DNA from: an uncultured bacterium | GTDB taxonomy: Bacteria; Desulfobacterota_D; UBA1144; Nemesobacterales; UBA2774 | Assembly (NCBI GenBank): GCA_965365595.1 | Contig: CBDUCG010000001.1 | Span: 1 to 47,827, forward strand | Reading direction: 5' to 3' | Length of the DNA: 47,827 bases | Part shown: positions 218 to 41,871 of the stretch, piece after piece | Layout of the letters: each line of letters opens with the position of its first letter | Position numbering within the stretch: the stretch's first letter is position 1 | The notes under the pieces: generated by a model | What the model was told of the DNA's origin: nothing | What the model saw: only the letters and a program-made list of their open reading frames with translations | The model's database searches: none | Made by a program: the position numbers and the translations under genes

Positions 218-1606
218 ATGAAAGATTTTTTATACAGATTCAAAGATAAGCCCACGAAGGCTACTATTTTTACAATGTTGAGTTTGCTTGTTTTAGGAGC
301 TTACTCGGCATTTGCTCAAGAGGATGCAGGCCCAACAGCTGCAGACGCTTTATTTACTGCAAATAATGTTTGGATGCTTGTGGCGACATTCCTTGTGTTT
401 ATTATGCACCTCGGATTTGCTTCGCTTGAATCAGGACTTACCAGAGCTAAAAACACAACGAACATTCTATTTAAAAATGTTTCAATTATTTCAATTGGTA
501 TTCTCACTTACGCAATAGTTGGTTTTAACCTCATGTATCCTGGAGATTTTTCAATCGGTCAATATTTCGGATTTGCAGGTTTTGGAATTGCTTCTCCGGA
601 AGGAGCTGCAGGCTTAATAGAATATGCAGATGGCGGATATACATATTGGACTGATTTTATATTCCAGGCGATGTTTGCAGCAACAGCAGCTACAATTGTT
701 TCAGGTGCTGTAGCTGAAAGAATCAAACTTAGCAGTTTCTTAGTATTTTCGATAATTTTTGTTGCAATCGTTTATCCAATAGCAGGTTCTTGGAAGTGGG
801 GTGGAGGATGGTTGGATGCTATGGGTTTTTATGATTTTGCAGGATCCACACTGGTGCACAGCGTAGGAGGATGGGGGGCACTGATTGGTGCGCTCATACT
901 TGGACCTCGTCTTGGTAAATATACAAAATCTGGACTAAAGCCTATCCCTGGACACAGCCTTCCGTTGGCAGCTATCGGTATGTTCCTGCTATGGTTTGGA
1001 TGGTATGGGTTTAACGGCGGTTCAGTTCTTTCTGCTGACCCAGAACTCATATCATTAGTATTTGTTACAACCTCACTTGCCGCAGCAGCAGGAATAATGG
1101 GAGCTTTATTCCTATCTTGGATAGTGTTTAAGAAACCAGACCTTTCAATGATTCTCAACGGGTCTCTCGCAGGACTAGTTGGTATCACTGCCGGAGCGGA
1201 TGTTATAAGCCCATTATATTCAGTAATAGTTGGTTTTATCGCTGGAATCATTGTTGTTGCTTCAGTTCTGTTCTTCGATAAATATGCAAAAGTTGACGAC
1301 CCTGTGGGTGCTATTTCCGTTCACCTCGTGTGTGGAATATGGGGAACACTTGCTGTAGGTATTTTTGCTGCTGACTTTAGCTTTATTACTCAGCTGATAG
1401 GTGTTCTTGCCTACGGTGTATTTACAGTGGTTTGTGCGCTTATTTTGTTCTTTGCAATCAAGTTGATAATGGGATTAAGAGTTTCAGAAGAAGAAGAAAT
1501 GGCAGGGCTGGATATTGGCGAGCACGGTATGGAGGCATACCCTGACTTTCAGCAATTGGCTGAATCAGGCGGTTCCACAATGAATTATCCCCCGTCACAA
1601 GGTTAA
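218..1606 (+). CDS. amtB: Ammonium transporter (Amt family) with N-terminal signal peptide
   Basis: 462 aa and polytopic. Amt-type motifs are present (DFAGSTLVHSVGGWGALIGALILGPR, WFGWYGFNGGS, ISVHLVCGIWGTLAVG). An AGGAGG SD precedes the ATG. Confidence 0.95.
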   Translation: MKDFLYRFKDKPTKATIFTMLSLLVLGAYSAFAQEDAGPTAADALFTANNVWMLVATFLVFIMHLGFASLESGLTRAKNTTNILFKNVSIISIGILTYAIVGFNLMYPGDFSIGQYFGFAGFGIASPEGAAGLIEYADGGYTYWTDFIFQAMFAATAATIVSGAVAERIKLSSFLVFSIIFVAIVYPIAGSWKWGGGWLDAMGFYDFAGSTLVHSVGGWGALIGALILGPRLGKYTKSGLKPIPGHSLPLAAIGMFLLWFGWYGFNGGSVLSADPELISLVFVTTSLAAAAGIMGALFLSWIVFKKPDLSMILNGSLAGLVGITAGADVISPLYSVIVGFIAGIIVVASVLFFDKYAKVDDPVGAISVHLVCGIWGTLAVGIFAADFSFITQLIGVLAYGVFTVVCALILFFAIKLIMGLRVSEEEEMAGLDIGEHGMEAYPDFQQLAESGGSTMNYPPSQG

Positions 1607-1681
1607 TAATAGAATAAAGATAATAAGTGCAAATAATGATAATAAAAATAAAAGCAAATAAATAAAAAGGATTCAAGGTTG

Positions 1682-1711
1682 GCTACTCCCCTGAAAAAGG
1701 GGAGTAGCTTT
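1682..1711 (+). terminator. Rho-independent terminator-like hairpin after amt
   Basis: A perfect 10-bp stem (gctactcccc / ggggagtagc) with a 7-nt loop, followed by ttt. Confidence 0.55.
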
Positions 1712-1752
1712 GAAAAGCAGTTAAATCCAATTCAAAGGAGGATAAGTCAGAT

Positions 1753-3093
1753 ATGAAAAGGTTAACGATATTTGCTCTTATGTTAACGTTTTTACTGCCA
1801 CTAGGCACTTTATCATCTAATGCTCAGTCAAGGGATCAGCAGATCCAGGAACTTAAGCAGATGGTAGAGCAGAATCGTCAGCAGAACGAAGCTCTGATGT
1901 TGAAAATTCAGCAGATGGAGGCTGAAAAAGCAGCAACACAGGTGCAAGTTGAAGAACTGGCGACAAAGCAGGAGGATACAGACCTTAAGGTTAATGGTTT
2001 CTTGACGTTTTTTGACGCCATTGATATAGGTTTCTATGTTGATACCACTTATCAGTATGTATTTGATCGTGGTTCAACAAGTGATCTGCAGTTAAGGTCA
2101 CTATATCCAGACAACCAGCAGTTTGCTATAAACGCTTTTACAGTTTCGGTATCCAAGACTCCGACACTTGAAGGCGGAGTTATGGATCTATTAGGTTTCA
2201 GAGCTGACATTCTGTTTGGAGAACAGGCACCTCTGCTTGCTTCAAATGGACTAAGCAGTGATGTTGTAGATCCGTATCAGGCGTACCTGCAGTTCTTGGC
2301 ACCTGTTGGTAACGGACTCAATGTTTACGCTGGTAAGTTTGTAACACTCGCCGGATATGAGGTTATTGAAGCTAAAGACAATCCTAACATTACACGTTCG
2401 ATTCTGTTTGGATTTGCCATTCCTTTTACACATACAGGTATCAGAACAGATTACACTGCCGGGCCACTTACTCTGACTGCCGGTCTAAACAATGGATGGG
2501 ATCAGGTTAAAGACGAAAATGGCAATGTAACAATAGAGAGTCAGCTGGCGTTCAGCCACTCAGGCGGCGCTATCAGCGATCTCTGGATAGGTGTTACCGG
2601 ATATTTCGGTAGAGAACCTGGTGATATAGGGTTTGAAGAAACAAATGGCTGGAGAGAGCTCATTACCGCTGTGGGAACAGTTACCTTAAACGACTGGCTA
2701 ACATTCATTGTTGATGCTGACTTTGGTTGGCAGCAAGATGTTATTTTCAATGAGCTGGGAGATGAAGAAGGTGTCTCATGGTGGGGTATCGCCGGTTATA
2801 TCGTAGCTGATGTGCATCCTGCAATCAGTCTTGCGCTAAGAGGTGAGTATTTTGATGACGAAGATGGTTTTAGGACAGGTACATCACAGAAGCTATTTGA
2901 ATTAACACCAACAATTTCCATTAAACCGTTTAAAGGCTTAATTGCCGGAAACAGATTTATTGATAATTTCGAAGCAAGAGCCGAATTCAGATGGGACCAC
3001 TCGGACGAGAGGTACTTTGAAACGGAAGATGGAGGATTTGAAAAAGACCAGTACGGCGTAATGGGACAGTGGCTGTATTGGATTGATATATAA
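1753..3093 (+). CDS. Outer-membrane beta-barrel porin-like protein with N-terminal coiled coil
   Basis: It has a signal peptide (ending SSNAQS), then a Q/E-rich heptad region. The rest shows alternating aromatic/Gly beta-strand patterning, and the sequence ends in an aromatic-rich C-terminal strand (GQWLYWIDI). An AGGAG SD is present. Confidence 0.6.
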   Translation: MKRLTIFALMLTFLLPLGTLSSNAQSRDQQIQELKQMVEQNRQQNEALMLKIQQMEAEKAATQVQVEELATKQEDTDLKVNGFLTFFDAIDIGFYVDTTYQYVFDRGSTSDLQLRSLYPDNQQFAINAFTVSVSKTPTLEGGVMDLLGFRADILFGEQAPLLASNGLSSDVVDPYQAYLQFLAPVGNGLNVYAGKFVTLAGYEVIEAKDNPNITRSILFGFAIPFTHTGIRTDYTAGPLTLTAGLNNGWDQVKDENGNVTIESQLAFSHSGGAISDLWIGVTGYFGREPGDIGFEETNGWRELITAVGTVTLNDWLTFIVDADFGWQQDVIFNELGDEEGVSWWGIAGYIVADVHPAISLALRGEYFDDEDGFRTGTSQKLFELTPTISIKPFKGLIAGNRFIDNFEARAEFRWDHSDERYFETEDGGFEKDQYGVMGQWLYWIDI

Positions 3094-3171
3094 AAATCAA
3101 GAGATTATAAGATACATCGACTCTATTCTATTAGAGTCCTTATCTCTCCATATCTCCTTTGTGTGGGCGGG

Positions 3172-3220
3172 GGGAGGACGGTTCTTAGGGCTAAGGCTGT
3201 TCTCCCTTTTGTCTTTTTTT
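3172..3220 (+). terminator. Rho-independent terminator after the porin gene
   Basis: A long imperfect hairpin (gggaggacgg...ctgttctccc) is followed by ttttgtcttttttt. Confidence 0.6.
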
Positions 3221-3350
3221 ATATATGTTGATGACAGACAATTTTTTTCCTTGCGTGAAAATATCTGATTAGGTAGAATAACAACCGCTTTTTAATGAAG
3301 ACATTAACATCTCATTAACATTGCATTAATTTCAACTACAAGTTCAGTAT

Positions 3351-3423
3351 GCCCGGATAGCTCAGTCGGTAGAGCAGAGGATTGAAAATCCTCGTGTCGG
3401 CAGTTCGATTCTGTCTCCGGGCA
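3351..3423 (+). tRNA. tRNA-Phe (anticodon GAA)
   Basis: Cloverleaf read by eye. The acceptor stem is GCCCGGA/TCCGGGC, the anticodon loop is tTGAAaa and the T-loop is TTCGATT. CCA is not encoded. Confidence 0.95.
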
Positions 3424-3655: not shown

Positions 3656-4072
3656 ATGAGGTTCGGTGATTATTTAAAGAGCAAGAGGAAACAGAGAAAT
3701 ATTACCCAAGAAGAACTTGCTCGCAGTTTGGAAGTATCAAGTGTCTTTATACATCAGCTTGAAACGGGCAAAGTTGACGCCCCATCCATAGACCGTTGCC
3801 ATCAGATGGCTGCAATCTTGGAGATAGAGATCGAAGAGTTGTGGACTGTAGCCAAGAAGGAACGCCTCAAAAGGTTTATGGAAAAAGAAGATATAGAGCA
3901 GGACAGCTTCGAAGTCTTAACAGATTCGGAAAAGGCATTGATTAATCTTTACAGAAGCCTGGACAGTGATATGAGGCGTGATTTCAGCGGTATGATCTTT
4001 ATGTTGCTAAGACATACAAAAGACCAGGGCGTACAGGAGATACTCGAAGAGTTTATGAAAAAATGCGCTTAA
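3656..4072 (+). CDS. XRE-family helix-turn-helix transcriptional regulator
   Basis: The N-terminus (LKSKRKQRNITQEELARSLEVSSVFIHQLETGK) is a typical Cro/CI HTH. The C-terminal ~70 aa is helical and of unknown function. Confidence 0.85.
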   Translation: MRFGDYLKSKRKQRNITQEELARSLEVSSVFIHQLETGKVDAPSIDRCHQMAAILEIEIEELWTVAKKERLKRFMEKEDIEQDSFEVLTDSEKALINLYRSLDSDMRRDFSGMIFMLLRHTKDQGVQEILEEFMKKCA

Positions 4073-5171: not shown

Positions 5172-5431
5172 AATTATAAACTAAACGGAATTATATTCTG
5201 ATCCTGAAGTAGTTTCATAAACCTTTATACAAAAGCGATTAAATCTAGTTTTATGTTTAACTGTTTCGTGAATGCGAGATTCGTAGATCAGAATTAACTG
5301 TCTTGCGGGTAATTTGTTAATTATTGGATCAAAAATAGGGAAATATCTCAAATTTACTAGATATACTTAGATAGATCGTTTAATTATAAATATAGTTGAA
5401 TTTATTGTTTTATGTTCTAGAGGAGCTGAGT

Positions 5432-6469
5432 TTGTTAATAGGCAAAGGTGGAGTAGTCGGTGTAGATATCGGTACTAACTCTATAAAGATTGTTGAACTT
5501 GAAGAAGTTGGAACGACTTATAGGCTGAAGAATATCGGTGAAGCCCCTATAGCTCAGGGGGTAATTATCAACAAAATCATACAAAATTCAAACGTTTTAT
5601 CAAATATTCTTTCCTCGCTTGTTGAAGATCTTGGCATACAAGCTGATGACGCTGCTGTTTCAATTTCGGGTAACCCGGTTTTATTAAAAAGAGTCAGTCT
5701 TCCTGCCATGTCTAGTGCGGAGCTTAACAAATCCATCAAATGGGAATTTGAGCAGCTTTGTTCAAACGGAATCCGGGATTTCAATTATGATTACCAAGTT
5801 ATAGATTCACAAAATTCAAATGATCGGATAGATGTTTTAATTGTTGCTGTTAACAAAGTTATTGCAAAACAATATCTCTCAATAATTTCGGCAGTGGGTC
5901 TGAATCCTGTCCTAATAGATCTGGACGTATTTTCTCTGGCGACAATGTATCAGGAAAATTATCCCGATTCCGAGGGCCAGATAGCCTTGGTTAATATAGG
6001 CGCTTCTGTGACAAACATTTTAATATTACAGAGCGGAGAGGTAGTATTTGCAAGAGACTTGCTAATCGGGGGTGATGTTTATTCCCATACTATAATGACA
6101 GAAATGGACTTTACTTATGATCAGGTTGAAGAAGTTAAACACAGCCAGAGCGCAGGGTTCACTAGCCCAGTTGTTGATCAGCTTGCAAGTGATTTCATAA
6201 AATCCATATCTTCTGAAATAAAAGAAGCAACAGATTATTATTCAGCCGCATATGGTCAGGATAAAGTTAAACGAATAATGATCGGCGGCGGAACTGCTAT
6301 GTTGCCGGGTTTAAAAGAGATGATTTCAGAGTTGACTCAATCTTATGTCGGGGTGCTTAACCCTTTTAGGAATATTGATTTGAGAAATGACATTTTTGAT
6401 CCGGAATACGTTGAGGATGTTTCCCCCAAGATGTGTATTGCCGCTGGACTTGCACTTAACAAAGCCTAG
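5432..6469 (+). CDS. pilM: PilM-like actin/HSP70-fold ATPase (type IV pilus assembly PilM family)
   Basis: VVGVDIGTNSIKIVELEE is a phosphate-1 motif, and IMIGGGTAMLPGL and a further actin-fold motif follow. The start is probably the TTG at 5432, after an AGGAG SD; the ORF track starts at 5396. Confidence 0.8.
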   Translation: MLIGKGGVVGVDIGTNSIKIVELEEVGTTYRLKNIGEAPIAQGVIINKIIQNSNVLSNILSSLVEDLGIQADDAAVSISGNPVLLKRVSLPAMSSAELNKSIKWEFEQLCSNGIRDFNYDYQVIDSQNSNDRIDVLIVAVNKVIAKQYLSIISAVGLNPVLIDLDVFSLATMYQENYPDSEGQIALVNIGASVTNILILQSGEVVFARDLLIGGDVYSHTIMTEMDFTYDQVEEVKHSQSAGFTSPVVDQLASDFIKSISSEIKEATDYYSAAYGQDKVKRIMIGGGTAMLPGLKEMISELTQSYVGVLNPFRNIDLRNDIFDPEYVEDVSPKMCIAAGLALNKA

Positions 6470-12108: not shown

Positions 12109-12198
12109 TGGCGGAGGGAGTGGGATTCGAACCCACGAGAATCTTGCGACCCCACTGGTTTTCGAGACCAGCGCCTTCGTCCGCTCGGCCATCCCTCC
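12109..12198 (-). tRNA. tRNA-Ser (anticodon CGA), long variable arm, CCA encoded
   Basis: The reverse complement reads GGAGGGATGGCCGAGCGG...ctCGAaa...GGTTCGAATCCCACTCCCTCCGCCA. Confidence 0.93.
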
Positions 12199-20639: not shown

Positions 20640-20716
20640 TGGAGCGGGAAACGGGATTCGAACCCGCGACCTTCTCCTTGGCAAGGAGACGCTCTAGCCA
20701 GCTGAGCTATTCCCGC
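20640..20716 (-). tRNA. tRNA-Gly (anticodon GCC), CCA encoded
   Basis: The reverse complement reads GCGGGAATAGCTCAGCTGG...ttGCCaa...GGTTCGAATCCCGTTTCCCGCTCCA. Confidence 0.93.
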
Positions 20717-22991: not shown

Positions 22992-24122
22992 TCAGGCAAA
23001 AACTTCGCTGAACGGATCGACTCTGGTCTGATCCGCAACGGGTTTAAGTATTTTTTTGTCCTGTCTTTCTATTCTGATAAGCCCGTTTTTCTTCTTAGTT
23101 GCTATAAATTGCGTGCCGCTTGTTTCCTGAGAAATCTTTTCAAGAATCCGGGGATAATTTTTGGATCCTATGAATATGGAATGAATGCATACGCCCAGCT
23201 TCTTGGCGCGTATTCTTTCATTTATTACATCACAGTCTCCCGAGGTCGGAATCCCGTCAGTAATAAATAGAATATGCTTGTTTCTGAGTCCTCGGCCCCT
23301 GAACTCTGAAATCGCGTCTTTTAGTGCATCTTCATAGTTCGTATTTCCTGAGCATTCGGTTTTTGAAGCCAAATCGAGCATCCAATTGTAGTCGCGGGTA
23401 AAGAATTTGGCGTTTCTTTTGTACTTGTATGATCTGTGATTAAATTCCACATAGCCCACTTTCATTCTCTTTGACCGGGCCAGTTCTACGACCCCTCTGA
23501 CAACCGATGATGACCATTCGCTATAAACCCCCATCATTGAAGTGCTAACGTCGCGTAAAATGGCGATTTCCCCGCCCATCATTTCTTTTTCCCTCTTGTG
23601 TACGCGCGGCAGTGTAGGTGTAGTGTTATCCGTCCATATTGTTGCCTCATACGGATCGATATCTTCGATTTCATCAAAATAATTCATACGTTTCCATGTT
23701 CTCGGCATGCCGCCCGGGTGAGGCGCTTTAAGAGCTATACTTCTCTGGAAGTTCCCTTCCAGAACTTTCATTATAATTCTGACATTATCCGCTGAATCGG
23801 TATTTTTATTGCCGCCGATCCAGTAGTCCTCTTCATCTCCGGGGTCTGGAGATTTGCTGGCGAAAACCTTGTTTGATTCAGGCGGTTCCCTGTCTTCGCT
23901 ATCTCCGCCGTCATCACTCAATTGACCGCTAGGATCGTTTGGAGCATTCTGGTCTTCGGGAGGGGACATCTGGCCTTCTTGTTCAATATTTTCTTTTAAT
24001 TCTTTTAGGGCTTGAAAAAAAGTCTTCCGGGCTTCGGATAGCTCGTCGTGATCCTCTGACTGCTTTTCACCTTCATCATCGGGGATTTCCTGGTGCTGTT
24101 CCAAATCGTCTTCACCAGGCAT
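22992..24122 (-). CDS. VWA (MIDAS) domain protein with ~95-aa acidic disordered N-terminus (CoxE/ViaA-like partner of MoxR)
   Basis: The MIDAS motif DVSTS (DxSxS) and a downstream ITDG are present. The N-terminus is rich in D, E and P. The gene lies 41 nt downstream of moxR on the same strand. Confidence 0.85.
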   Translation of the reverse strand: MPGEDDLEQHQEIPDDEGEKQSEDHDELSEARKTFFQALKELKENIEQEGQMSPPEDQNAPNDPSGQLSDDGGDSEDREPPESNKVFASKSPDPGDEEDYWIGGNKNTDSADNVRIIMKVLEGNFQRSIALKAPHPGGMPRTWKRMNYFDEIEDIDPYEATIWTDNTTPTLPRVHKREKEMMGGEIAILRDVSTSMMGVYSEWSSSVVRGVVELARSKRMKVGYVEFNHRSYKYKRNAKFFTRDYNWMLDLASKTECSGNTNYEDALKDAISEFRGRGLRNKHILFITDGIPTSGDCDVINERIRAKKLGVCIHSIFIGSKNYPRILEKISQETSGTQFIATKKKNGLIRIERQDKKILKPVADQTRVDPFSEVFA

Positions 24123-24163
24123 GTTGGGGTCGGGCTGTGCCGCTTGTTCTTCCTGTTCCGGGT

Positions 24164-25126
24164 TTAGCTTATCCGGTCTGTCCCTGTCTTTTTTTTTTTA
24201 GAAGTCAGGTCCTCAAGAATCTGATCCAGCTGGAGAAAAACGTCTTCAGGGATTCTAAATGCAGTCATATACCTGAGCGCGTTTAAGTCTTCGATCGTAC
24301 ATTCTTCTCTGTCATGAAGAAGTGCATGCGCACGCATGATTTTTAATGTTTTAACAAAAAATGTCCTATCCGATATCAAAGAATTGGTTTCATTACATCC
24401 GTAATCTTCAATGAGTGTCGCAACGAATTTAGCTAAAGCCTCCTGAACTTCAGTCGGTATCACTACGCTTCCGAGCTTATCATAATATTCGTCAAACACT
24501 TCCCTGCTGACCCTGGCCGGAACTTCGTAATCGGTTGGTCTCTCACTATAAAGCTTGATAACCTCTTTTGCTTGTTCCCACTTTCTTCCATAAGAAAGCC
24601 CTTGGGAAGTTATCTGAAGAACAAACCTGTCCAGGTTTGCAGGATCCAGAGGTTCGTTGTAATACTCGTCAGCCGTAGGGTTACTTGTTCCAATGGCTGT
24701 AAGAAGGGGGATATTTTCATTAAAGAATTTTCTTTCGTTAAGAATTCTAAGAAGCACGTTAAGAGATTCACCGGGGGCTCTTGAAATGTCATCCAGCAGA
24801 CAAATCTCTGATGTAAGAATGCCGCCCTTTACAACTTTCTGCTTAATTATTTCTCCATCCTCTGTAGTTTCTTTTGAAATTACCAGGTCACCAATTAATT
24901 CTGACAGCCTTGTATCTCTATGAAGCTGGTAGAAAAAAAATCTCAGACTTGCCGCAGCAGACACAATTTCTGAAAGCATGGTCTTCGCGGTTCCCGGAGG
25001 ACCCTCCACATAAATATGTTCTCTTGCGATGATACCCAGCAGCAAGGACAACTTTACTTCCTCATGTCCTACTACCAGATTATCCATTTCTTCTTTGAGA
25101 ACTACGAAAGGATTTTCAGTACTCAT
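24164..25126 (-). CDS. MoxR-family (RavA-like) AAA+ ATPase
   Basis: It has Walker A (GPPGTAKT), Walker B reading LLDDISRAPG, sensor-1 (GTSNP) and an Arg finger (NLDRF). It is 320 aa. Confidence 0.9.
   Translation of the reverse strand: MSTENPFVVLKEEMDNLVVGHEEVKLSLLLGIIAREHIYVEGPPGTAKTMLSEIVSAAASLRFFFYQLHRDTRLSELIGDLVISKETTEDGEIIKQKVVKGGILTSEICLLDDISRAPGESLNVLLRILNERKFFNENIPLLTAIGTSNPTADEYYNEPLDPANLDRFVLQITSQGLSYGRKWEQAKEVIKLYSERPTDYEVPARVSREVFDEYYDKLGSVVIPTEVQEALAKFVATLIEDYGCNETNSLISDRTFFVKTLKIMRAHALLHDREECTIEDLNALRYMTAFRIPEDVFLQLDQILEDLTSKKKKTGTDRIS
24189..24199 (-). repeat. A11 homopolymer (T11 on + strand) in the last codons of moxR
   Basis: Counted directly. It encodes KKKK, and the VWA reading frame opens exactly at this tract. 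Confidence 0.9.
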
Positions 25127-25317
25127 TATAGGGTCTTGCCTCCCTCTATTTCATTTCTATATAAGTGCAATTATTAATTGTACATAAGGGCTGTTTTTTT
25201 GCAATAAAATACTCATTCAAAAACAAAATACTCTTTTGCTCTCTTATCTCTTTCAGCTTTACTTTTCATAAACTAGTATGATAAGTTTAGAGCTACAATT
25301 TTTTTTGAGATAATTCA

Positions 25318-26757: not shown

Positions 26758-27210
26758 ATGATTAATACCAGAAATTTCGACAAATTCTCAAAACTTCTAA
26801 TGATACTTTGTGCTGTTATTTTCATAGGACTTTTCTCCTGTGGAAATGATCAAGAATCTTCGGGAGATGAATGGACATATCTAGGAGAAGTCAGGGATGA
26901 AAAAGGGAAATACGTATCTGTTTACATTGATTTGAAAAACATGGAAATTAAAGACAAGATTAGAACATTCTGGATCAGATACTATGCTCCTATTAACGAC
27001 GGCGAAACGGAAGAAAGGTATATTAGGCAACTAGGCTTATGGGAAGTTGATTGTCAAGATAGAAAACTTTATGTGCTGAAAGAAAAATATTATGGTCCCA
27101 ATGGTCAGGTCTTGGGCAGAAGTGACAAGAAAATTAAAGAAGAATATGATGAGAACTCTATAGGTAACAAAATGTCTGCTGCGGCATGCCGTTATGCCGG
27201 CCGAAATTAA
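26758..27210 (+). CDS. Lipoprotein, possibly surface-adhesin-E-like
   Basis: It has a lipobox (LFS|C). The W..DC....Y.........G pattern (LWEVDCQDRKLYVLKEKYYGPNG) is reminiscent of that family, but this is a by-eye call only. Confidence 0.5.
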   Translation: MINTRNFDKFSKLLMILCAVIFIGLFSCGNDQESSGDEWTYLGEVRDEKGKYVSVYIDLKNMEIKDKIRTFWIRYYAPINDGETEERYIRQLGLWEVDCQDRKLYVLKEKYYGPNGQVLGRSDKKIKEEYDENSIGNKMSAAACRYAGRN

Positions 27211-41022: not shown

Positions 41023-41871
41023 ATGGCTGCTACCAAAACCGCTACAAAAAAAACTACTAGAAAAAGGACTGTAAAAAAGAACCACGGTTTACCTTTAAAG
41101 AACGTGCTTTATGAAAAAAAAAGGAAAGTAGCTTACGTCACAATTAACAGACCTGAGGTGCGTAACGCATTAAATTCACAAACCAGGGAAGAGCTGGCTA
41201 TGGCACTTGAGGACGCCTGGCTTGATGACAGAATCGGGGTAATTGTCCTCACGGGTGCCGGAGGGAAAGCCTTTTCGGCGGGGGGAGATCTATCTTGGAT
41301 TGTCGATCCCAAAAAGAAAGTTGATGCCAAATATATGCTGGTTCATTACAGGCTGGCTACAGCCATGCGTTGTTGCGGAAAACCTATCATAGCCAGAGTA
41401 GACGGTTACTGTGTTGGCGGCGGGAATGAGCTCAATATGCTTTGTGACCTTACCATAGCTTCAGATACTTCGATTTTTGCGCAAGCCGGCCCGTTGGTCG
41501 GAAGCGCTCCTATCTGGTACGGGCTTCAGCAGCTTCAGCATTCCGTAGGTGATAAAAAAGCAAGAGAAATAGTTTATCTATGTGAGCGCTATACTGCGCA
41601 ACAGGCGGCCGACATGGGTTGGGTTAACAAAGTAGTGCCGAAAGACAAGCTTGATAAGGAGGTAGACGCATGGTGCAAGAGCCTTCTTCAGAAAAGTCCT
41701 CAATCACTCAGGATTGCCAAATTTCAGATTAATTTCGCTTCCGACATGGCTCACCCGCAGATAACACACGGACTGGAGCTGGCCAGGTTTTTTATGAAAG
41801 CCCCCGAAATGGTGGAGGGAGCAAATGCATTCCTTGAGAAGCGCAAGCCTGATTTCTGGGGTGTTAAATAA
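41023..41871 (+). CDS. Enoyl-CoA hydratase/isomerase (crotonase) family protein with Lys/Thr-rich N-terminal tail
   Basis: It has the crotonase motifs INRPEVRNALN, LTGAGGKAFSAGGDL and GYCVGGGNEL. A strong AAGGAG SD precedes the ATG. Confidence 0.85.
   Translation: MAATKTATKKTTRKRTVKKNHGLPLKNVLYEKKRKVAYVTINRPEVRNALNSQTREELAMALEDAWLDDRIGVIVLTGAGGKAFSAGGDLSWIVDPKKKVDAKYMLVHYRLATAMRCCGKPIIARVDGYCVGGGNELNMLCDLTIASDTSIFAQAGPLVGSAPIWYGLQQLQHSVGDKKAREIVYLCERYTAQQAADMGWVNKVVPKDKLDKEVDAWCKSLLQKSPQSLRIAKFQINFASDMAHPQITHGLELARFFMKAPEMVEGANAFLEKRKPDFWGVK

Follow-up and report, generated by a model that had tools for sequence, protein, structure and literature searches.

A conserved poly-A tract probably yields two proteins from a single MoxR-VWA gene in Dadabacteria and their relatives

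The window analysed here is a 47.8-kb stretch of bacterial DNA (contig CBDUCG010000001.1, 47,827 nucleotides), which between positions 22992 and 25126 carries two adjacent open reading frames (ORFs): moxR, encoding a MoxR-class AAA+ ATPase, and an ORF encoding a protein with a VWA domain. All coordinates given below for moxR, the adenine run and the VWA frame refer to the minus strand. The moxR ORF (24164-25126) specifies 320 aa from an ATG at 25126, which stands 12 nt downstream of a Shine-Dalgarno-like GAGGGAGG (25139-25146, read from the sequence), the sole ribosome-binding site seen across the moxR-VWA unit. Close to the end of moxR lies a run of eleven adenines (A11; 24189-24199), preceded by a T at 24200 and phased in the zero frame as AAA AAA AAA AA|G, and the strand reads GAC CTG ACT TCT AAA AAA AAA AAG ACA GGG ACA GAC CGG ATA AGC TAA. 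This phasing contains the heptamer A_AAA_AAG, and past the run the zero frame continues through an eight-codon tail, KTGTDRIS, to a TAA at 24166-24164. The VWA ORF, as called from its first ATG (22992-24122; 376 aa), is in the -1 frame relative to moxR. In that frame a TAA at 24200-24198 is followed by AAA AAA AAA GAC AGG GAC AGA CCG ... AAC ATG without a stop, and the complete -1-frame ORF, encoding an acidic disordered linker and the VWA domain, extends from the interior of the run to the stop at 22994-22992 (22992-24197). One A added to A11 would yield an in-frame fusion of 711 aa that reads KKKK-DRDRPDKLNPEQEEQAAQPDPN-MPGEDD across the junction and takes its C-terminal 398 residues from the -1-frame ORF. 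The DRDRPDKLNPEQEEQAAQPDPN codons (24123-24188) occupy the interval between the run and the first -1-frame ATG; they are homologous to the linker of in-frame orthologues and, because they sit before that ATG, are translatable solely after a frame change. We propose that the 320-aa ORF is the short product of the unit and that A11 is the site of slippage, through the gain of one A in transcription and/or a -1 shift of the ribosome.

Our reading of the sequence agrees with a preliminary description of this DNA on the eleven-A run at the end of moxR, on the stop-free passage through KKKK-DRDRPDKLNPEQEEQAAQPDPN-MPGEDD into the VWA start at 24122 when a twelfth A is supplied, and on the size of the fusion, put there at about 710 aa. 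Its further point, that the homopolymer is exactly where the VWA frame opens, holds for the window but is not a conserved feature: the TAA that closes the -1 frame before the run is missing from many relatives, in which the frame is open for 10-169 nt 5' of the run, and the exact opening in the window is a by-product of the TCT codon that precedes the run. A homopolymer scan of the 47.8 kb showed that A11 is the sole A11/T11 and the longest homopolymer of the window, with an A9 coming second. Shuffled windows contained a mean of 0.52 such runs, and at least one was present in 30 of 100 shuffles. Since an A11 is expected in about 30% of shuffles, the window sequence alone is no proof of function, and the weight of the argument rests on comparative data.

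Pfam searches gave bpMoxR as the best match of the AAA+ part (1e-21; 77 bits against a cut-off of 27), ahead of AAA_5 (4e-18), AAA_3 (1e-10) and AAA_lid_8 (3e-7). In the VWA part VWA_3, VWA and VWA_2 pass their cut-offs, and VWA_CoxE lies slightly under its own. The closest solved structures by sequence are MoxR 2r44 (E 8.5e-26) and then RavA (1.5e-12), and 2r44 was also recovered with Foldseek (6e-16). The AAA+ part is of the MoxR class. Membership of the ChlD/BchD family was considered and rejected: the match to PF01078 Mg_chelatase (E 0.0055) scores 16.6 bits against a cut-off of 20.3 and covers 38 residues only, no ChlI/BchI chain was found at E <= 1e-3, and ChlI appears only at rank 46 in the Foldseek results.

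The Walker A motif GPPGTAKT (24980-25003; residues 42-49) is invariant in the family alignment, as are D112 and D113 of the Walker B motif CLLDD (24788-24802; residues 109-113), which has Asp where the catalytic Glu is usual and aligns with ilaDEvnRsP of 2r44. The preliminary description had remarked on this LLDD, and the feature proved to be family-wide, every member having hhhhDD instead of hhhhDE, including both paralogues of the two-gene relatives described below. The invariant DD suggests an unusual ATPase cycle, possibly slow or switch-like. A candidate sensor 1 (N149) and a candidate arginine finger (R167), both assigned in this analysis, are invariant as well. The VWA domain (23058-23570; fusion residues ~520-690) has an intact MIDAS motif, also as first described, in which D526-x-S528-x-S530 (23552-23538), T596 and D624 are all invariant. 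In an AlphaFold model of the fusion (mean pLDDT 66) the AAA+ module is folded over residues 1-308, residues 311-444 are disordered and acidic with a single helix at 361-386, and an alpha/beta VWA fold occupies residues ~520-690 (pLDDT 75-88). The linker helix, LSEARKTFFQALKELKENI (23970-24047), is conserved and lies 5' of the first ATG in many split relatives. The last AAA lid helix (300-308) ends at KKKK, which puts the proposed recoding site exactly at the domain boundary. The order AAA+, acidic and Pro-rich linker, VWA, noted earlier as that of BchD/ChlD, is thus borne out by Pfam, the alignment and the model.

We searched protein databases with the conceptual fusion and found that all of the ~110 best matches considered are single proteins, 630-715 aa long, that cover 95-100% of the query. 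They come from Dadabacteria/'Thermodesulfobacteriota' metagenome-assembled genomes (MAGs), bacterium HR37, Tectomicrobia/Entotheonella and others. Aligned, these in-frame proteins show next to no variation at the junction lysines K310-K312, and their linker is matched by the 22 window codons that lead from the run to the ATG (DRDRPDKLNPEQEE...). When the 320-aa ORF was the query, the 120 best clusters (more than 110 distinct; 63-90% identity) were all MoxR-only ORFs of 307-352 aa from NCBI, JGI, ENA and Logan, some of them present on up to 121 contigs, and no fusion with at least 78% identity to the 320-aa ORF was among the matches listed. A 320-aa ORF followed by a 376-aa ORF, exactly as in the window, recurs on contigs of five independent assemblies (three from ENA and two from Logan, made with different assemblers); over 2.3-2.6 kb their identity to the window is 98.1-100%, and A11 is present in each.

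One genome per GTDB species was surveyed by tblastn with the fusion and by inspection of the junction, giving 80 loci (numbered with the prefix L). The N- and C-terminal parts are in different frames in 49 of the 80 species, with the switch at residue ~310-315. The downstream part is in the -1 frame in 47 of these 49, the exceptions, L048 and L068, having one A fewer than their relatives. Another 22 species are in frame and keep a pure A9-A12 run, and nine are without the run. On a simple neighbour-joining tree the split state follows clades and reaches deep. The window belongs to an A11 clade of ~23 species; an A10 clade has ~24 species, the smaller split lineages are L062/L063, L031 and L049, and the in-frame A10 state appears to be ancestral. 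The run length of each clade, A11 or A10, is consistent across MEGAHIT, SPAdes, IDBA, HiFi-type and ONT assemblies. At one Dadabacteria MAG locus (L038, ~3930-3945) NNNN stands directly after A11, and assembly or masking breaks exactly at the homopolymer. The comparative data indicate that 22992-25126 is one gene, not two, coding for a MoxR-class AAA+ module and, past a disordered acidic linker, for a VWA/MIDAS domain. What the preliminary description took for a stand-alone pair is, on this evidence, a single recoded gene, one that belongs to the Dadabacteria core and keeps its place on the chromosome. That description had held that orthologues lacking the homopolymer, with stop codons in the spacer, would speak against its reading. 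The test came out the other way: every single-gene orthologue has a pure A9-A12 run, and in the VWA frame the spacer encodes protein.

The run is conserved beyond what the encoded lysines explain in codon terms. All 71 single-gene loci carry a pure A9-A12 run at the junction, including the GC-rich Entotheonella genes. Outside the run, lysine is encoded by 1671 AAA and 1733 AAG codons (49% AAA), with AAA at just 7-23% in GC-rich relatives; inside the run, the lysine codons are 100% AAA in all 67 genes analysed. If the species were independent, the log10 P of an all-AAA run would be -71; they are not independent, and the AAA signal at the run persists across phyla and across GC contents of 36-63%. 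Among metagenome contigs with the A11-clade motif, 27 homologues were counted, with A11 in 21, A12 in three, A9 in two and A10 in one. Neither in these 27 contigs nor at the 71 genome loci does the run drop below 9 A. Codon usage thus indicates that the nucleotide run itself is under selection.

The frame beyond the run is under selection too. In the split clades, dN/dS estimates, approximate since dS exceeds 1 and is saturated, come to 0.033-0.052 (VWA part), 0.035-0.045 (MoxR part), about 0.1 (linker), about 0.2 (DRDRPDKLNPEQEEQAAQPDPN codons, 24123-24188) and about 0.05-0.06 (conserved helix ARKTFFQALKELKEN). Strains of the window's species differ in the linker/VWA frame by 55 synonymous and 4 non-synonymous changes. 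On these two results the reading as a pseudogene was rejected. The -1 frame stays open from the run for ~390-398 codons in all split loci. Selection on this frame indicates that it is expressed; it has no conserved start of its own.

The conserved run, the frame split and the selection on both sides of it support slippage on the A run, which the preliminary description had listed as one of three unranked explanations. We consider it very probable that programmed poly-A slippage makes one gene give both MoxR alone and a MoxR-linker-VWA fusion. Standard decoding of A11 would produce the 320-aa MoxR-only protein, with its stop eight codons past the run, and a fraction of expression events would enter the -1 frame at the run and produce the 711-aa MoxR-linker-VWA protein. 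The likeliest agent would be RNA polymerase slipping so that the transcript gains one A, and -1 ribosomal slippage or sliding on A_AAA_AAG may contribute. In the in-frame species, both alternative frames hit a stop 3-18 codons past the run, so slipped messages would there yield a short product. We favour polymerase slippage over a stimulated ribosomal frameshift, because no conserved RNA structure flanks the run and its minimum length is 9, a preference that stops short of direct discrimination between the two. Consensus folding of the region from -45 to +90 nt gave 0 base pairs for 16 A11-clade and 15 A10-clade sequences, and the window sequence around the run folds no better than shuffles (z = 0.41). 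A GAGG...CCTC mini-hairpin seen by eye upstream of the run in some relatives was discarded, being only 4 bp long and not conserved in the window. There is precedent for slippage on runs of this length: the A9 of Thermus thermophilus dnaX gives ~50% short product via transcriptional slippage, and selection against coding A/T runs appears at 9 nt in many bacteria (PMC1088944). Poly-A runs of 7, 9 and 11 in fs-chlD, the frameshifted chlD gene, gave 10, 40 and 63% frameshifting in Escherichia coli reporters (PMC3711429).

Polymerase and ribosomal slippage are not mutually exclusive. Purely translational recoding, in which transcripts are faithfully A11 and ribosomes either shift -1 on A_AAA_AAG/A_AAA_AAA or slide on AAA codons, is possible, if on balance doubtful. 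It draws on the dnaX-type heptamer A_AAA_AAG in the window and on the presence of A_AAA_AAA or A_AAA_AAG in every split configuration. It also has the chlD precedent, read as programmed ribosomal frameshifting with the same length dependence (PMC3711429, PMC5009743). Yet neither split clade has a conserved stem-loop or pseudoknot 3' of the run, an element that chlD signals usually have (PMC9227772). Programmed -1 ribosomal frameshifting, moreover, needs only 7 nt, whereas the runs in the 71 loci and 27 contigs never fall below the 9 nt at which polymerase slippage turns significant (PMC1088944). The run is preceded in the window by an SD-like GAGG, 16 nt upstream of the heptamer. This is farther than the dnaX stimulator.

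Phase variation at the DNA level, by which slipped-strand mispairing would toggle A11 and A12 and thereby switch the VWA fusion off and on with no slippage of RNA polymerase or ribosome, is quite improbable. Run lengths do differ between close relatives (A12 in L007 and A11 in L046; A11 in L017 and A10 in L049), five of the 27 A11-clade contigs are in frame, and long homopolymers are hypermutable (PMC1088944). Against this, six strains of the window species, diverging by up to 2%, all have A11; the out-of-frame length is kept in 21 of the 27 A11-clade contigs and in all 21 A10-clade loci; and the listed matches to the 320-aa ORF hold no fusion at 78% identity or higher alongside more than 110 split clusters. 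The gene is, besides, a syntenic core gene and not a contingency locus. An off state fixed past synonymous saturation, with a downstream dN/dS near 0.04, implies that the supposed off allele must be expressed. The phase-variable coupling raised in the preliminary description is therefore disfavoured as the main mechanism, although run length is not completely fixed.

Highly improbable, too, is an ordinary two-gene MoxR/VWA operon in which the VWA protein starts at its own ATG at 24122 and the relation of its frame to the run is due to chance. Gene callers do annotate two genes, the window offers an ATG 66 nt past the run, and RavA-ViaA, CbbQO and NorQD are normally encoded as separate MoxR and VWA genes. 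However, no Shine-Dalgarno sequence precedes ATG 24122 in the window, whereas moxR has GAGGGAGG, and the corresponding Met is an internal, variable residue in orthologues. The first -1-frame ATG, at +66 nt in the window, varies in split relatives between +34 and +393 nt from the run and often lies past the conserved ARKTFF helix. The variable Met and the scattered first-ATG positions rule out independent initiation at ATG 24122 as a conserved mechanism. A scan between the two ORFs found no minus-strand terminator and no convincing internal promoter. The codons between run and ATG, furthermore, are conserved as protein, in-frame orthologues are all fusions, and the run is conserved at synonymous sites. 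Finally, that a plain fusion gene has been misread at its homopolymer in sequencing or assembly, or has recently been inactivated by a frameshift, is hardly credible, for although homopolymers are error-prone, some related MAGs are ONT-based or of low coverage and the odd lengths at L048, L068, L093, L049 and L007 may be errors, the same A11 occurs in five independent assemblies from different assemblers and the same split in ~49 species, which excludes here the sequencing error that the preliminary description had considered, each clade keeps its run length across assembler types, the direction is -1 in 47 of 49 split species, and the downstream frame is under strong purifying selection both between species and between strains.

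Several points weigh against programmed slippage as we have set it out. The first is that run length is not strictly fixed, since the in-frame A11-clade contigs comprise three with A12 and two with A9, and one more contig has A10. L007 (A12) is sister to L046 (A11), and L049 (A10, split) is sister to L017 (A11, in frame); sister loci with different run lengths mean that change at the DNA level does occur. These odd lengths (L007 at 5x coverage, L049 from ONT, L048 and L093 on short contigs, and L068), or their opposites, could be assembly errors. Unless slippage is highly efficient, moreover, the ratio of the two products should differ greatly between in-frame and split species. The length dependence of chlD has been interpreted as ribosomal frameshifting (PMC3711429), and run length alone consequently does not settle the choice between transcription and translation. 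In the window, the ATG lies just 66 nt past the run, and some independent initiation is possible in this species. The identity of the slipping machine, the product ratio and the composition of the assembly are parts that we infer, and an assembly of the 5:1 type in particular is pure conjecture. Separately, the run-length variants L117, L135, L137, L127 and L130, together with the pairs L007/L046 and L017/L049, represent either several flips of frame state or miscounted runs.

The nine run-less relatives, which are more distant and all SAR324/Lambdaproteobacteria-type MAGs, have a fused gene with an acidic junction in place of KKK. In eight of the nine, a separate MoxR-only gene of 325-348 aa follows immediately downstream (L050, L051, L052, L055, L057, L059, L060 and L065; for example, L051:2953-4995 and 5173-6150), and the ninth contig is cut off there. 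The MoxR-only product of these relatives ends at the position that aligns with the run. No second moxR was found within 3 kb at any run-bearing locus. The family seems, from these gene arrangements, to need both a short and a long subunit, supplied either by two genes or by one gene with a slippery run. The separate MoxR-only gene is nearer to the window MoxR (55-58% identity) than the neighbouring fusion is over its N-terminal part (45-52%). At L059 the fused gene (224-3298) encodes 1024 aa, with an N-terminal extension of ~340 residues before Walker A.

How the two products might work together is suggested by MoxR-class motors that act with a VWA/MIDAS adaptor, namely CbbQ/CbbO, NorQ/NorD and RavA/ViaA (PMC4660213, PMC13036017, PMC9976466), if the window protein forms a hexamer as they do. 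CbbQ and CbbO assemble as CbbQ6:CbbO1 (PMC4660213), and a single NorD finger occupies the NorQ pore (PMC13036017); one VWA per hexamer is the sub-stoichiometric ratio that low-frequency recoding would supply. By analogy with these chaperones, the short and long products may co-assemble into a MoxR hexamer with a few tethered VWA adaptor arms, on this view a one-gene counterpart of remodelling chaperones of the MoxR6:VWA1 type (CbbQO, NorQD and RavA-ViaA). The window system differs from the two-gene MoxR and VWA systems in that a single gene supplies both motor and adaptor, with the adaptor covalently attached to a motor copy, in its DD rather than DE Walker B, and in having no Rubisco, NOR or Frd context. 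Rea1/midasin, cited by Tsai et al. as the fused counterpart of MoxR6:VWA1 (PMC4660213), has six AAA+ modules followed, after a long acidic linker, by one C-terminal MIDAS/VWA; it differs in being a single giant eukaryotic polypeptide and in involving no recoding. Tentatively, and at slightly less than even confidence, we suggest that the poly-A run is a family-wide stoichiometry device for a bacterial 'mini-midasin', in which short motor and long motor-adaptor subunits would share one ring, three solutions would be interchangeable and changes between A9 and A12 would retune the ratio. If this is true, the three solutions are two genes, an in-frame gene with slippage for the short form, and an out-of-frame gene with slippage for the long form.

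The closest parallel in gene organisation is fs-chlD of Mg/Co-chelatase, for which three papers describe a programmed -1 frameshift on A_AAA_AAR/poly-A (Antonov et al. 2013, PMC3711429; Atkins et al. 2016, PMC5009743; Kuznetsov et al. 2022, PMC9227772). In both genes AAA+ comes first and leads into a poly-A site of up to 11 A, beyond which the -1 frame encodes an acidic linker and a VWA domain. In both, standard decoding gives a small AAA+-only subunit and recoding a medium AAA+-VWA subunit, products that are predicted in the present case. Both are annotated as two adjacent genes, have in-frame fused homologues, and are replaced in other lineages by an arrangement with a separate gene for the small subunit (chlI in the chelatase). 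Unlike fs-chlD, the window AAA+ belongs with bpMoxR/AAA_5/AAA_3, nearest 2r44 and RavA; its conserved neighbours are mltG and proB, with no chlH/cobN within 3 kb; no downstream RNA structure is conserved at the run; and the run is also conserved in in-frame orthologues.

The dnaX gene offers a second parallel. In E. coli its stimulators are a Shine-Dalgarno-like element and a stem-loop, and no stimulator is conserved at the window-family run. The tau and gamma products arise in E. coli by -1 programmed ribosomal frameshifting on A_AAA_AAG and in T. thermophilus by transcriptional slippage on A9 (PMC1088944), and a 'reverse' organisation, in which recoding is needed for tau, has also been described (PMC3711429). 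As in dnaX, a single AAA+ gene would supply one complex with both a long and a short subunit, in-frame layouts with slippage and out-of-frame layouts with recoding both exist among orthologues, and the alternative frames stop close to the run. The dnaX product differs in being a clamp-loader subunit, and the part missing from its short form is not a VWA adaptor. The best Pfam match of the window AAA+ part, bpMoxR (PF20030), is also the family of the MoxR-vWA-beta-propeller ternary conflict systems (Kaur et al. 2020, PMC7159879). Unlike those systems, the window gene has no adjacent beta-propeller or effector, its neighbours being YceG, ProB, the Na:Ala symporter and an Adhesin_E-like protein, and the gene family is syntenic with housekeeping mltG-proB across the phylum.

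The neighbours of moxR-VWA in the window are MltG/YceG and an Na:Ala symporter, as first described for a locus convergent with mltG and next to a transporter. All Dadabacteria loci, split or not, are convergent to mltG-proB, and this shared synteny identifies the loci as true orthologues and the gene as part of the chromosomal core. No client can be inferred from the neighbourhood, where conservation is limited to the convergent mltG-proB, which share no operon with the gene. No chlH/cobN was found within 3 kb at any locus; whole genomes were not searched. A defence-system reading was considered and set aside, as PADLOC returned one weak match only (IetA, E 3.8e-4) and the context is housekeeping. 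A 150-aa ORF at 26758-27210 (+) matches Adhesin_E (E 7.6e-10) and is conserved upstream of the Na:Ala symporter across the A11 clade. The only Rfam matches in the whole window are three tRNA genes, at 3351-3423 (+), 12112-12198 (-) and 20643-20716 (-), the third just upstream of proB. Elsewhere in the window, an A9 at 41114-41122 (+) lies in frame inside ORF 41023-41871, where it encodes ...YEKKKGK... near the N-terminus. This ORF encodes an enoyl-CoA hydratase (ECH_1, E 9e-63), and its A9 has the length at which transcriptional slippage turns appreciable.

Recoding as such is known from chlD and dnaX; for the MoxR-class case in Dadabacteria and relatives we found no published description. We likewise found no prior report of frameshifting or slippage for MoxR or for Dadabacteria, in a search that did not extend to most subscription journals or to GeneTack/Recode, so that absence is not proof. 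The family combines split, in-frame and duplicated-gene states among orthologues, an unusually clean comparative signature. For annotation, this matters because the gene is now entered in two parts, as a 'MoxR family ATPase' and as a VWA protein without a name, or possibly taken for a pseudogene. More than 110 database clusters in Dadabacteria and related MAGs are affected, and these would be better annotated as one recoded gene.

If the proposed recoding is correct, this would be the third AAA+ machine, after dnaX and chlD, to have converged on poly-A recoding, and it would concern a core gene of a whole candidate phylum. The invariant DD of Walker B makes the ATPase behaviour of these proteins of interest within the MoxR class. 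For MoxR biology more generally, a VWA arm carried covalently on a minority of protomers would offer a handle on the sub-stoichiometric VWA partner, and since the arm is tied to recoding, a change in the length of the run should alter the number of arms.

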